DNA of 64,000 nt from Octopus vulgaris (Eukaryota), in contig OX597818.1 in the NCBI GenBank assembly GCA_951406725.2, forward strand, positions 88,226,001 through 88,290,000, written 5' to 3'. The notes beneath the pieces were generated by a model. The model worked only from the letters and a program-made list of their open reading frames with translations. It was not told where the DNA came from and did not search any database. The translations under genes and the position numbers were made by a program. Shown one piece after another: positions 8,245-55,271 of the stretch (positions are counted from its first letter, which is position 1; every line of letters starts with the position of its first letter).

Positions 8245-10554
8245 AAATGGAGTCCTGCCACATGAGCAGAGGTGGTGCAAGCGTAAGTACAGAGGTACCA
8301 AGGATCAACTCCTGGTAGACAAAACTGTACTTAGAGATTGCAAGAGGAGGAAAACTAACTTAGCCATGTCATGGATCGATTATCGTAAGGCGTACGATAT
8401 GATCCCACATTCTTGGATTATGGAATGCATGTGTCTCTTTGGTATTGCATCGAATATTGAGTGATTGCTTGGAAAAAAATATGGCGACGTGGAGATGGAA
8501 CTGACAGCATAAGGACGAAGTTTAGGGACAATAGAAATCAAGAGAGGCATCTTCCAAGGGGACTGCATGTCCCCACTGAACTTTGCACCGTGCATGATAC
8601 CACTAACTCTGATTCTGAGGAAAGCAAACGCTGGATATGTATTCAAAAGCCACCAACAAAAAGTCCATCACTTGTTATTCAGGGATGACCTCAAACTTTG
8701 TGGTAAAGTTGAAACCCAAGCCAGATCCTTCGTTGATACGGTGTATAATTTCAGTGCTGATATCAGAATGGAGTTCGGACTGAAAAAGTATGGTGTTTTA
8801 GACTTGAAGAGAAGCAAAATTAAATCTATGGACAGGCTAACGATAATGTCGGGAGATGTTATGAAGCAAATTCAAGAGACGAGCTATAAGTACTTGGGGA
8901 TATTGGAAATGGATAAATTGATGGAGAAAGAAATGACAGAAAAATCTAAGGTACAATACTTGTGCAAACCGTGACCGATCCTTAAGTCGAAATTAAACGG
9001 ACGGAATAAGATTGAAGCTTTTAACACCTGGGCAGTGTCAGTCCTTAGATATGGAGCAGGGGTACTCGCATGGACAGTAGCCGAACTAAACAACTTAGAC
9101 AGAAAGACAAGAAATTTGTTGACTAGATATGGGATACTCCACCCAAAAAGTGACACAAGAAGACTGTATATACCAAGAAAAATAAAGGGAAGGGGGAAGA
9201 GGACTCATTGGATGCGTACAGAGCATTAGGGCAAAAGAAAATAACATAGCATGGTATGTAAAAAATGCCACAGAACTGCTATTATTCGAAGTAAGAAGGT
9301 CAGGCTTGTGTAGGATGGGAGATTGCACCGTACAAGCACTGTACAAGCACTTGAGAATGAATGAAACTGAAAATAGGTGGATAAAAAAAAGAATGCTTGG
9401 ACAATTTCATAGCGATGTTGAAGATAAGACAGACAGAGAAAAAAAGATGGCTATGGATGACTAAAAGTGATTTAAAACCGGAAACGGATGCTCTAATATG
9501 TGCTGCCTGAGAGGAAACATTAACAACCAATTATATCAAATACAGAATTGATAACACATCAGAAAGTGATAAGTACAGAATTTGTGGAGAAAATGGAGAA
9601 ACCGTATGGCATATTACCAGTCAATGTACGCTACTAGCGCAGAAAGAATATTAGAGACGTCATGACAACATAGTAAGGATTGTACATTGGACACTTTGCA
9701 ACAAGTATGGTCTTGACAGAGCAAAAAGGTCGTACGAACATAAGCACGAAGGCATAATCGAAAATGATAATGCAAAAACCCTATGAGATTTTTGATTGGG
9801 TGTGACCAGAATGAGAGAATAGGAAACCAGACATAGGAGGAAATACAGCCGTGTTTCGTGGTCTGCTACCACAACAGCTCCTTTATAGGATCCAGTCAGC
9901 TCAAGACATCATGAGGAGGAACCACGTCCGGTTTCGACCCCTACTCTTCTACTGTTTTAACGTGACCCCCCCCCCTTCGGAGGTGTCTTCAGCTCTGGTG
10001 TTGGGTGCATGTCTTCTTTCTTCTGTTCCCTGGCCTCTTCGATGTATCGTCAGCGAGTGTCAGCCGGTGACTGACTGACTTGTCAAAGTTTTGTCTTTAA
10101 ATACCCTCCGCTAGGCTCCAGCAAGTTGTCACGTGACACTGTCTCACCATAACTGACTAGTGAAGGCGCGGAGTTTTAGCTAATTAAGAAAGAAAGCAAA
10201 CGATGCCAGATCATAGATATAGCATGTCCAGCTGACAACAAGGTTTGCGATAAGGAAGAAAAAAGTCGGTAGATATGACAGGTTAACTTGGGAGGTTAAG
10301 CAGTTGTGGTTGCTGAAAAAGGTGGTAGTACTACCAATAATTGTCGGAGCCCTGGGAACAGTGAATAAAATTCTTGAGAGGTACATGGAATAAATAGGGG
10401 CTGCAATAAGGGTGGATCACTTGCAGAAAGCAGCACTGCTTAGAACACGAACACTCCGGATGGTGCTCGAAGAATAAGGGGTGTTACCTTAGATGACTGG
10501 TAGTGAACAGCTGACACCGTAGTATATCTCGAGAGTTGCAAGCTGTGCAAAGGC
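8245..10554 (+). mobile_element. 5'-truncated, decayed R4/Dong-clade non-LTR retrotransposon (RT, zinc knuckle, RLE)
   Basis: RT motifs [33 protein letters not shown] and HLLFRDDLK; knuckle ICGENGETVWHITSQC; RHD; RLE motifs RKPDI..IIDIACP..PIIVGALG. A 3' UTR is followed by (AAT)n. It has many stops and frameshifts and is interrupted at about 9837-10179. Confidence 0.9.
9837..10179. mobile_element. Unclassified ~340-bp insertion splitting the LINE RLE domain
   Basis: The LINE reading frame stops at ..RKPDI (9836) and resumes at ctaattaagaaa (about 10180). The intervening sequence is GC-richer and non-coding. Confidence 0.6.
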
Positions 10555-29077: not shown

Positions 29078-29346
29078 AGGGTATCTAAGAGATACCTCCA
29101 CGCTGGAAATAGCAGCCAAAACTCTAAAACGACATTAAATGTTCATACAGCACCCGGGGGGAAGAACAAAGGACAAAATAAAATAATTTTTTGCTAGTTT
29201 AAACTAGCAAAAACTAGCAATAAACTAGCAAAAAATTATTTTATTTTGTCCTTTGTTCTCTCCTGGTGCTGTATGAACATTTAATGTGGTTTTAGAGTCA
29301 AGTTTTGGCTGCTATTTCCAGCGTGGAGGTATCTCTTAGATACCCT
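29078..29346. repeat. Fold-back with ~124-bp arms (29078-29201 / 29221-29346) next to (TA)n
   Basis: agggtatctaagagatacctccacgctggaaatagcagccaaaac..ttttgctagttta followed by its reverse complement. The spacer is made of stuttered aaactagcaa. Confidence 0.9.
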
Positions 29347-29441: not shown

Positions 29442-29722
<281 letters not shown>

Positions 29723-29866: not shown

Positions 29867-30080
29867 TGTTGTTACACATCGCTGATCACAGTGCACTTCG
29901 CATTGTTTTAGCCTTCAAATGACGCCACCCCGCTGGCTAAGCGAGCAGGCCAACAGAAAAAAGAGTGAGAGAAAGTTGTGGCGAAAGAGTACTGCTGGGA
30001 GTGCCCCCCCCCCCCTGCCGGAGCCTTGTGGAGCTCTAGGTGTTTTCGCTCAATAAACACTCACAATGTCCGGTCTGGGA
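29862..30080 (-). mobile_element. SINE family C (5'-truncated) with tail variant b
   Basis: Family C body (gagtgtttattgagcgaaaacacc..ctctttcgccacaactttctctcactc) joined to tail ttggcctgctcgcttagccagcgggg..aacaacatctg. Confidence 0.75.
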
Positions 30081-30091
30081 CGTTGTGAGTG

Positions 30092-30557
30092 TTCTGGTGA
30101 CGTTGATGATCGCCTGGGGCTAAATGCATCAGTAACACCCCCACTACCCCGCCCTGTCCCTAGCCACATTCAGATGGCTGATCCCCCTTATGTTATAGAG
30201 CAGTTACTGTTTATATCTCGCTCAGAGATTTATTATTGTTGTCGAACGGTTTTTCTACATCAGTGACTGTGGTTACTGTGAAAATCCATATATATCCAGC
30301 CTGTAGAGGAAGTCCCTCAACGAAGAACGGTGCTTACCATGCGTTGATAAGAGGCAAATACCTCGAAACCGGTCCGTATGTAGTATCCGTATCTTCGGGG
30401 AGGCTGATCTCCCTTTGCAGGCTGGCAAGGACACCGAGATGGTGTCAGCCCTTCTGGTGACGTTGATGATCGCCTGGGGCTAAATGCATCAGTAACACCC
30501 CCACTACCCCGCCCTGTCCCTAGCCACATTCAGATGGCTGATCCCCCTTATGTTATA
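30092..30557 (+). mobile_element. Retrozyme-like element: 360-nt unit with a 106-nt terminal direct repeat and one hammerhead
   Basis: 30092-30197 equals 30452-30557 (period exactly 360). The HHR is at 30338-30380 and the element ends in (TA)n. No credible ORF. Confidence 0.8.
30338..30380 (+). ncRNA. Type I hammerhead ribozyme motif with U3:A8 covariation
   Basis: catgcg-TTGATAA-gagg-caaata-cctc-GAAAC-cg-GTC-cgtatg. Stem I is 6 bp, stem II is a perfect 4 bp, stem III is the palindrome ACCGGT and the site is GUC. Confidence 0.75.
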
Positions 30558-30577
30558 TATATATATATATATATATA

Positions 30578-32454: not shown

Positions 32455-32815
32455 TGTTGAGCGAAGCGGTCTTCTCTGTAGTGGGAGAAGTCCGAAACGT
32501 GGTCCTTTGCTATTTATAAGACCTGCAGAAGAGAAAGCAGGTCAACCCCCGACACCGAGAGCATCGACGGATGGATGAATGCGCATCCAGGCTCAGCGGC
32601 TGCGTAGGAAGTCGGGGACAAGAAATAGGAAGAAAGAGTGAGAGAAAGTTGGAGCGAAAGAGTACAACAGGGGTCGCCACCACCCCTGCCGGAGCCTCGT
32701 GGAGCTTTAGGTAGTTTCGCTCAATAAACACACACAACGCCTGGTCTGGGAATCGAAACCGCGATGGTCCGACCGCGAGTCCGCTGCCCTAACCATTGGG
32801 CCACTCCGCCTCCAC
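32455..32815 (-). mobile_element. SINE family C with tail variant c
   Basis: Full family C head and body joined to an unrelated tail, ttgtccccgacttcctacgcagcc..gaagaccgcttcgctcaac. Confidence 0.75.
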
Positions 32816-53878: not shown

Positions 53879-54160
53879 ATATGGTATGTAACCTGCTCAG
53901 GTTGTGGTCACAATTATGTGGGCCAAACGAACCTTACTTTGAGACGCAGAGTCACGCTGCATAAAGAACAGATTCATTTTTCTCAACACAGGCAGATAGT
54001 TCTGAGCGAACATATCGACAGATGCGGAAGTAGTAAAACACCGGATTTCCATATCTTTCCATTATACCAATGCAAAGATTCAATCTCCTTACTAGAATGC
54101 CTAAACAAGGAAAACCTGTTCCTACAAAAGTACGGACCACACCTTAATATACAAAGTTGA
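53879..54160 (+). pseudogene. Penelope-like element GIY-YIG endonuclease, C-terminal fragment
   Basis: IWYVTCSGCGHNYVGQTNLTLRRRVTLHKEQI..LSEHIDRC..KENLFLQKYGPHLN. This matches the PLE pattern Y.ITCxxC..YVGQT..LxxRxxxH..H..E..LN. It is 5'-truncated against a TA-rich tract. Confidence 0.85.
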
Positions 54161-54450
54161 CCACTTCAGAAATTATACTTAGGAATTAGTTGTCCCTCTT
54201 GCCACCTGTTGCCTCCTTAGTCCACTCTCTAGACTCTTTCTTATCTTTCAAGCATCCAAAATGGCGAGACCCATTTGTCACAAGAATTGATTACTTCACA
54301 ATGACCCTTGAATAGCTAATGTGGGGGTAGGGGTGGAGTATGTGGGAGTGGCATGTGTGGTGTGGGTTGGATGTAGGAGGGTATCAATGAAGGGAGAAGG
54401 CGGGTAGGAGTGAAGGGAGGAAGTAGGTGTCAAATGAAGAAAGGAGAGGA

Positions 54451-54537: not shown

Positions 54538-54659
54538 TTGAGCGCATGTGACGCAAATGAACGAATATAGAAGATTAATTCCTGTTCACGGTGGAGTCAG
54601 GAGTCCGGATGGCCCCTGTGCAAAGACAATCCGAACAGAGACAGGTATTGTGTCTGGAA

Positions 54660-55038
54660 GCACTCCGTCGGTTACAACGACGAGGGTTCCGGTTGATCCG
54701 AATCAACGGAACAGCCTGCTCGTGAAATTAACGTGTAAGTGGCTGAGCACTCCACAGACACATGTACCCTTAACGTAGTTCTCGGGGAGATTCAGCGTGA
54801 CACAGAGAGTGACAAGGCCGGCCCTTTGAAATACAGGTACAACAGAAACAGGAAGTAAGAGTGAAAGAAAGTTGTGGTGAAAGAGTACAGCAGGGATCAC
54901 CACCATCCCCTGCCGGAGCCTCGTGGAGCTTTAGGTGTTTTCGCTCAATAAACACTCACAACGCCTGGTCTGGGAATCGAAACCGCGATCCTATGACCGC
55001 GAGTCCGCTGCCCTAACCACTGGGCCATTGCGCCTCCA
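54660..55038 (-). mobile_element. SINE family C (tail a), full length
   Basis: Reverse complement of the 43566-43944 type. Confidence 0.9.
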
Positions 55039-55271
55039 CACAGGTATTGTAATGACTTTTGTATAGGTGTTTCCTTCCTGAGCGGCCTATAATACTATAT
55101 TTGTTCCACGTCCTCGCGTTGTTGTGTTTTCTCTTTGTGTTTTCATGTGTGGATTAGCTTTATATATATATATATATAAATATATATATATATGATTTAA
55201 AACTTTTACAAACACAACATATATATTTATAGGTCTGTCTGTCTGTCTCTCTCTATATATATATGTGTGTG

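Follow-up and report, generated by a model that had tools for sequence, protein, structure and literature searches.

A dispersed 360-nt hammerhead repeat family of Octopus vulgaris with Penelope-type insertion anatomy

A hammerhead-bearing insertion in a (TA)n tract

The window, by which we mean the whole 64,000-nt stretch of Octopus vulgaris DNA analysed here (contig OX597818.1, positions 88,226,001 to 88,290,000), carries on its plus strand a 466-nt insertion at 30092-30557 that comprises 1.3 units of a 360-nt repeat. A single unit occupies 30092-30451 and matches a C23 copy at 100%, and a C19 copy equally well over 359 nt. The rest (30452-30557, plus strand) is a terminal redundancy, a 106-nt exact direct repeat of 30092-30197 with 100% identity at a spacing of 360 nt. 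The insertion is 5'-truncated and stops at unit position 105-106, the shorter of the family's fixed 3' ends. The 43-nt tail that elsewhere forms a long fixed 3' end, at unit position ~149, is present as an internal copy (30197-30240, plus strand). No ORF of at least 120 aa overlaps the element, and the 1.3 tandem non-coding units of the original prediction are borne out. TRF reported no tandem array.

At the 5' junction (30056-30093, plus strand), a flanking repeat stops at 30080, and 30078-30093 is an inverted copy of 30056-30071 with one mismatch, overlapping the element by TT. From this arrangement we infer fold-back synthesis followed by a 2-nt microhomology join. The (TA)n target tract (30554-30577, plus strand) overlaps the last four bases of the element. 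We looked for a target-site duplication at the junctions of the window insertion and saw none.

The type I hammerhead lies at 30338-30380 on the plus strand, where it had been placed before, and has the canonical form: a 6-bp stem I (30338-30343/30375-30380) and a 4-bp stem II (30351-30354/30361-30364) with loop CAAAUA. Its core box (30344-30350, plus strand) reads UUGAUAA, as claimed, with U3 at 30344 and A8 at 30349. GAAA follows at 30365-30368, and the 2-bp stem III lies within the palindrome ACCGGU (stem III/loop 3, 30368-30373, plus strand), for which a dimer helix is predicted (duplex -8.3 kcal/mol). The cut site is predicted after C30374. The core-stem II pattern matched once in the window against 0.00 expected.

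Stem I continues into the rod-like extension that the original prediction had drawn at 30296-30425 (plus strand). This rod folds at -63.5 kcal/mol (z -6.74), with 0 of 200 shuffles equally stable; the whole 360-nt unit has a z of -3.19. In the circular ensemble, the pair probabilities are 0.79-1.0 for stems I and II and 0.0 for stem III, and the predicted cost of opening the hammerhead core is 0.6 kcal/mol. Preformed stems I and II without stem III usually indicate that a motif functions as a dimer, according to the consulted portion of PMC4209133.

Rfam gave no match in the window at gathering scores, and a scan of 3 kb returned 46 weak matches with the hammerhead absent. Restricted to 161 nt, the scan recovered a full-length Hammerhead_HH9 at 28.2 bits (E 1.7e-5; gathering score 52), aligned end to end with the stem I bulge UUAC included. 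Two canonical sister loci likewise gave no match at gathering scores, so the whole superfamily escapes Rfam.

Covariation across subfamilies covers both the hammerhead and the rod extension and speaks for selection on the RNA fold. Among 21 copies, 91.9% of cells were paired, with two-sided changes in 23 of 49 pairs. No shuffle among 500 scored as high, and slid controls reached 31-49%; the copies were hand-picked, and because the structure was taken from the window copy, the slid controls are at a disadvantage. Stems, loop 2, palindromes and rod are preserved across ~30% divergence, and the stem III palindrome is kept as ACCGGU, ACUAUAGU, ACUGCAGU or ACUCGAGU. The hammerhead is probably active, at least as a dimer. 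Speaking against this, eight of nine predicted Xenopus retrozyme dimers did not cleave in a recent test, as given in the excerpted text of 10.64898/2026.07.22.740005.

Several other repeats lie in the window. The repeat interrupted at 30080 by the insertion is SINE-like and of very high copy number (contig depth 10^4-10^5), with copies at 29870-30080, 32629-32790 and 54620-55040. Within a high-copy repeat flanked by microsatellites, 29582-29651 forms a near-perfect hairpin with a mir-9-like Rfam match on both strands (43.9 bits vs gathering 58.6); it is probably a palindromic repeat junction and not a microRNA. A MITE-like long AT-rich inverted repeat at 29122-29298 is matched by plant microRNA models by shape only, and 8513-8974 (plus strand) holds a non-LTR reverse transcriptase frame fragment of 153 codons. 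A 5'-truncated Neptune-like Penelope element (PLE) at 53882-54330 (plus strand) consists of a GIY-YIG C-terminal fragment, 79-80% identical to its nearest copies, and, behind it, a pLTR whose hammerhead-like motif is broken. It has no sequence relation to the repeat at 30092-30557.

A dispersed family and its 3:8 core pair

The window element belongs, as a young copy, to a non-coding 360-nt repeat family that is dispersed in the genome. We searched a genome of 2.8 Gb in 227 contigs and examined ~360 loci overall. The family has at least 40 full-length copies: the best 40 of 1850 candidates, which were scored, have 95-100% identity over 332-360 nt, with 147 matches around them, in agreement with the dispersed, tandem-forming retrozyme-type family that had been proposed. 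Exact matches to the young core number 133 genome-wide. Copies are spread over most large contigs, mostly with fewer than two units and with no LTRs. Near-identical sequence also occurs in 20 sequencing runs from 8 studies and 4 organisms, none of them recorded as RNA.

The window copy has a single hammerhead. Elsewhere the units form head-to-tail arrays of 353-360 nt without spacer, 3-5 units long, with one hammerhead per unit: a U3:A8 array (L016/L030) has three, and sister arrays reach five. Canonical C3:G8 sister families (L089-L118, L169-L176, L339-L342) have units of 353, 359 and 360 nt in arrays of up to five; none of them is detected by Rfam at curated thresholds, and they are the best candidates for abundant circular RNA. 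At L338 (G000:C1:94322235-94326418), a U3:G8 copy, flanking DNA and a LINE fragment together form a 1.38-kb tandem repeat of four units. A pair of young units 6.9 kb apart (L243) proved to be a local duplication.

Unit size, tandems, a canonical type I hammerhead and dispersed copies are those of non-LTR retrozymes. The coral, mussel and axolotl elements described in the available sections of PMC7229834 share a non-coding unit of 170-400 nt (350-390 in mussel), tandem copies, a canonical type I hammerhead with a short palindromic stem III, highly paired RNA and co-occurrence with PLEs. Unlike them, the octopus family is known from genomic sequence, has the U3:A8 core with U3:G8 and C3:A8 sisters, and mostly has fewer than two units per insertion. 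We found no description of this family in the literature, although subscription papers, repeat databases and the PMC7229834 supplement may hold one.

U3:A8 was present in 41 of 41 cores listed from the top loci, with 23 of 30 loci represented. It is fixed in the window subfamily and is not decay. Exact-pattern counts gave 587 copies with C3:G8 and 29 with the C3:A8 mismatch, a subfamily of the same anatomy; U3:A8 was counted by subtraction at ~351 (430 minus 50 and 29). The count of 362 for U3:G8 comes from a different anchor pattern, with G8 in all of the 100 matches listed. Among the 100 matches listed for non-U3 cores, all had C3. Pairing states far outnumber the mismatch state.

We built trees with positions 3 and 8 masked, from 12 cluster representatives (31 clusters, singletons dropped) and from 18 rows; these superseded a FastTree of 130 copies in which the root was unstable. 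The ladder runs from C3:G8 families to U3:A8 with 8-nt palindromes, through several U3:G8 steps to the window-subfamily U3:A8, and on to C3:A8 and C3:G8. On the 18-row tree, a single origin was rejected separately for C3, G8, C3:G8 and U3:A8 (p-AU <1e-50), in a test for which the groups were named after the first tree, the root was assumed and recombination may contribute. By the branching order, U3:A8 of the window subfamily probably arose stepwise from a U3:G8 wobble, and the 3:8 pair later went back to C:G, probably through a mismatch state that also amplified.

A probable origin from the wobble supports the compensatory reading of U3:A8 in the original prediction. That reading held for fixation of the pair; strict maintenance did not hold, as wobble and mismatch states were amplified as well, and the repeated switching that the tree demands indicates that the 3:8 pair is loosely constrained. 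Amplification of the C3:A8 subfamily suggests that full ribozyme activity may not be required for mobility.

U3:A8 is reported to be natural and active in vitro (PMC3088659, in excerpt); its first metazoan sighting was in PLE repeats, and it is known from Schistosoma PLE motifs with ~1,300 hits (PMC4209133, in excerpt). These two papers had already published U3:A8 in nature. The available parts of PMC7151607 and PMC6155905 gave no cleavage rates for 3:8 variants. In the octopus, ~12 of 30 Neptune-like PLE loci also bear a U3:A8-type motif. The pLTRs of such PLEs (L033-L060, L062, L064, L066) have hammerhead-like motifs in which U3:A8 is combined with an additional A ahead of stem III, and another (L063, near 2725, minus strand) has a covariant A3:U8 in its hammerhead-like motif.

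Insertion ends, a likely Penelope helper and the RNA template

We mapped insertion ends at 64 loci, selected by the 3'-end motif only, which gave 78 arms. Sixty-nine of these stop at unit position ~106 (40 arms) or ~149 (29 arms), 43 nt apart, and (TA)n follows directly after 47 of the 69. The 5' ends are scattered, with arm lengths of 27-682 nt. Circularly permuted start points had been expected; instead, the 3' ends are fixed and only the 5' ends vary. Inverted arms occur in 27 of 51 de-duplicated loci, and 22 of these 27 combine one short and one long end.

In the consulted text of 10.1101/2021.04.23.441226, PLEs are recognised by partial tandems, by inverted arms that are truncated at the 5' end, by a tail of 30-40 bp on one side and by a bias towards microsatellites. 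The octopus family resembles Neptune-clade PLEs and their pLTR hammerheads (excerpts of PMC4209133 and 10.1101/2021.04.23.441226) in its 5'-truncated copies with partial tandems and inverted arm, its one-sided tail and its microsatellite target, and differs from those PLEs in having no ORF and a hammerhead that is canonical rather than minimal. The window copy shows the same anatomy in its short end, TA tract and fold-back 5' junction. We are therefore highly confident that this is a retrozyme-type element moved by Penelope machinery: the fixed 3' ends, the (TA)n target, the inverted arms and the lack of a coding version among the loci examined fit the suggested mobilisation in trans, perhaps by a Penelope RT. 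A minisatellite spread at the DNA level by recombination, with the hammerhead a relic, would also have tandem units, and satellite-like amplification has been proposed for vertebrate retrozymes (10.64898/2026.07.22.740005, in excerpt). Dispersal over most large contigs with mostly fewer than two units, fixed 3' and variable 5' ends and inverted arms make this highly improbable.

The likely helper, and the best candidate, is a young Neptune-like PLE (L061/L062/L064) whose copies are 98.6-98.9% mutually identical. L062 has a 753-codon stop-free frame with RVT_1, a CX4CxxC linker and a GIY-YIG-type C-terminus; the linker, found in L061/L062/L064, is a feature of Neptune/Nematis elements. In this PLE family, too, there are two 3' ends that run into (TA)n, and their spacing of 44 nt is close to the 43 nt of the retrozyme. 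PLE dependence of animal retrozymes was proposed in PMC7229834 and argued for vertebrates in 10.64898/2026.07.22.740005, both seen in excerpt. The vertebrate elements described in the latter likewise follow a non-autonomous, PLE-dependent model. Their case rests on co-occurrence and pLTR homology; the octopus link consists of the 43- vs 44-nt tail, the TA target and the inverted arms, with homology to the sampled pLTRs undetectable (none to 38 Neptune-like PLE loci by blastn and nhmmer). Relative to the non-LTR retrozymes in the available sections of PMC7229834, the insertion ends are here mapped and match a specific PLE.

The unit could instead be the pseudo-LTR of a coding PLE with unsampled full-length copies, and the window copy a 5'-truncated piece of it. 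The anatomy is purely that of a PLE, most PLE hammerheads occur in truncated copies and metazoan U3:A8 was first seen in PLE repeats (excerpted text of PMC4209133). The spacer-less direct arrays and the canonical motif, with its 6-bp stem I and 4-bp stem II, speak against it. We found no coding version of the unit among the ~360 loci examined and no autonomous partner by homology; in the subset of loci checked for protein matches, no unit is preceded by an RT or GIY-YIG frame that runs into it, and PLE protein matches, at 10 non-PLE loci, lie apart from or behind the units. The sole long inserts between unit pieces are LINEs with target duplications. We judge the pseudo-LTR explanation improbable.

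The helper's template could be a circle, a multimer or uncut RNA. Thirty-three of 69 arms pass through the cut site and three end within 5 nt of it. We looked there for an accumulation of 5' ends and found none, and a genome-wide pattern for a non-C before the 3' product had one match, lying inside a full unit. Since arms cross the cut site and few end there, the template was circular or uncut. The L030 U3:A8 array, in which all units have a private variant in common, fits either. Mosaic arrays of canonical-core sisters, A-B-A-C-C at L094 and A-B-B-A at L339, point to multimeric or mixed templates and make one monomer circle insufficient as sole template.

Arms with several ribozymes made up 21 of 65 for C3:G8, 9 of 90 for U3:A8 and 2 of 26 for C3:A8, and were rarer than with C3:G8 for both U3:A8 (p 8e-4) and C3:A8 (p 0.016). 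The sets comprised the 100 matches listed each for C3:G8 (one unrelated match dropped) and U3:A8, and all 29 for C3:A8. The difference in array length by core state is suggestive, given exact-match patterns of unequal length. Four runs that we guessed to be RNA held low-depth contigs of 239-295 nt with 0-2 differences that bridge the cut site, in which RNA and DNA, the two strands, and circle and tandem look alike.

It is possible, though on the unlikely side, that the same element and Penelope helper use uncut linear read-through RNA of a tandem locus, with a slow or vestigial U3:A8 ribozyme and minor circles. The mosaic arrays, the amplified C3:A8 (29) and U3:G8 (362) cores and the scarcity of multi-ribozyme arms with U3:A8 and C3:A8 suit this version, and the lack of 5' ends at the cut site fits uncut RNA and circles equally. 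However, stems, loop 2, palindromes and rod are held by covariation, and the pairing states greatly exceed the mismatch state. If all templates were linear, arrays would become shorter with every round, but five-unit arms exist; and comparable mussel, coral and axolotl elements yield circles (PMC7229834, in excerpt). We lean slightly towards a circular template for the window copy.

Our preferred model, held with the same slight inclination, is a non-autonomous retrozyme whose ribozyme-cut and re-ligated circular RNA would be reverse-transcribed into (TA)n by a Neptune-type PLE. Family, anatomy, fixed 3' ends, TA target and structure conservation are direct observations, and the steps that follow are a proposal. 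A tandem locus would be transcribed, and two hammerheads, held together by the palindromic stem III, would cleave after C30374. Monomers and multimers would then be closed by a host ligase. The Penelope GIY-YIG nuclease would nick (TA)n, and the Penelope RT would start at unit position 106 or 149 and copy across the cleavage junction. It would drop off after ~200-300 nt on average and often restart as an inverted arm.

A LINE inserted upstream of the ribozyme in older relatives

In three old U3:G8 copies, the retrozyme is split by a 5.3-kb LINE with 13-18-nt target duplications, whose domains are zf-CCHC (ORF1) and Exo_endo_phos, RVT_1 and zf-RVT (ORF2, APE-RT). Old-copy pairs 5.8-7.4 kb apart, considered as full PLEs, were rejected on this account: they are LINE insertions with target duplications. 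L1/Tx1-type LINEs lie upstream of the hammerhead in older subfamilies at L240, L241, L242, L280-L309, L318 and L330-L337, with duplications of 13-19 nt. In 28 of the 30 nearest LINE copies, two of which are loci that prompted the search, the retrozyme follows directly, in the same orientation and from one site ~20-25 nt upstream of stem I. A 29th (L305 = L326) has lost its 3' end and has its 5' junction within the retrozyme. Another 20 LINE regions include 17 that belong to more distant subfamilies (84-88%), and these are inserted in sequences other than the retrozyme, which confines retrozyme specificity to one subfamily group.

Such regular adjacency would also be expected if the repeat were partner to this L1/Tx1-type LINE, in the manner of a SINE, or formed its 3' tail. 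The retrozyme lies on both sides of full-length LINEs that are bounded by target duplications of 13-19 nt, which largely refutes that reading. Downstream halves come from several different subfamilies whereas the LINE end is constant, and of 124 CCGG-type ribozymes none has that end upstream. Neither duplications nor poly(A) occur in free copies, which have PLE tails. We consider both versions very unlikely.

We counted exact LINE-end junctions for both targets: the old one, present in 696 copies, has 29, whereas the young one, present in 266, has none (p 1.6e-4), in a comparison where the two patterns are imperfectly matched and age is a confounder. The equivalent position in the window copy, 30316-30333 on the plus strand, differs in sequence from the target known in older subfamilies, and no LINE junction was found at the window-subfamily target variant.

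Matches of the LINE proteins to atlas and homolog collections had generic L1/RT names only, and the only named relatives of a neighbouring LINE protein are from cephalopods, which agrees with the cephalopod family guessed in the original prediction. Sister LINE subfamilies (L310-L317, L323, L329) have intact 1148-codon frames and are arrayed head to tail, with as many as ~9 copies spaced 5.28 kb apart, for example at G000:C5:29183336-29204889 and G000:C9:59208555-59251232. Their targets are other repeats, with one flank shared by L312/L313/L315/L317/L323/L329 and another by L320/L327.

The targets of target-specific Tx1 elements include DNA transposons, LTR elements, snRNA genes, satellites and microsatellites (PMC4494074, in excerpt). 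In its features, the octopus LINE resembles Tx1 (piggyBac Tx1D), Keno (U2) and Tx1-Mar (Mariner) in its zinc-knuckle ORF1, APE-RT ORF2 and fixed repeat site. Target duplications, sister subfamilies with other targets and tandem re-insertion are also common to both (same excerpt); the octopus LINE differs in targeting a retroelement that bears a ribozyme. There are published precedents for natural U3:A8 and for Penelope-derived retrozymes. A site-specific LINE in a retrozyme was not found in the literature, nor was any Tx1 or other LINE with PLEs or retrozymes as its target, though subscription papers and repeat databases may hold it.

Put together, these observations allow a tentative and rather doubtful wider reading, a three-tier system. 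A hammerhead circRNA retrozyme would be mobilised by Penelope enzymes and would in turn have become the special target of a LINE subfamily, which inserts just upstream of the ribozyme. The young subfamily would have escaped by a change of target site, and the 3:8 pair would have passed from C:G to U:A and U:G and back to C:G via the C:A mismatch. If this is true, the LINE RNA would be initiated by transcription of the retrozyme and trimmed by its self-cleavage.

With the site-specific LINE, a retroelement that bears a ribozyme joins the targets known for such LINEs. The natural, amplified series of C3:G8, U3:G8, U3:A8 and C3:A8 cores, in what is nearly one ribozyme, is a tool for asking how much cleavage a retrozyme requires and whether cleavage determines array length. 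L061/L062/L064 and the retrozyme are a concrete, testable helper-passenger pair for the mobility of animal retrozymes.
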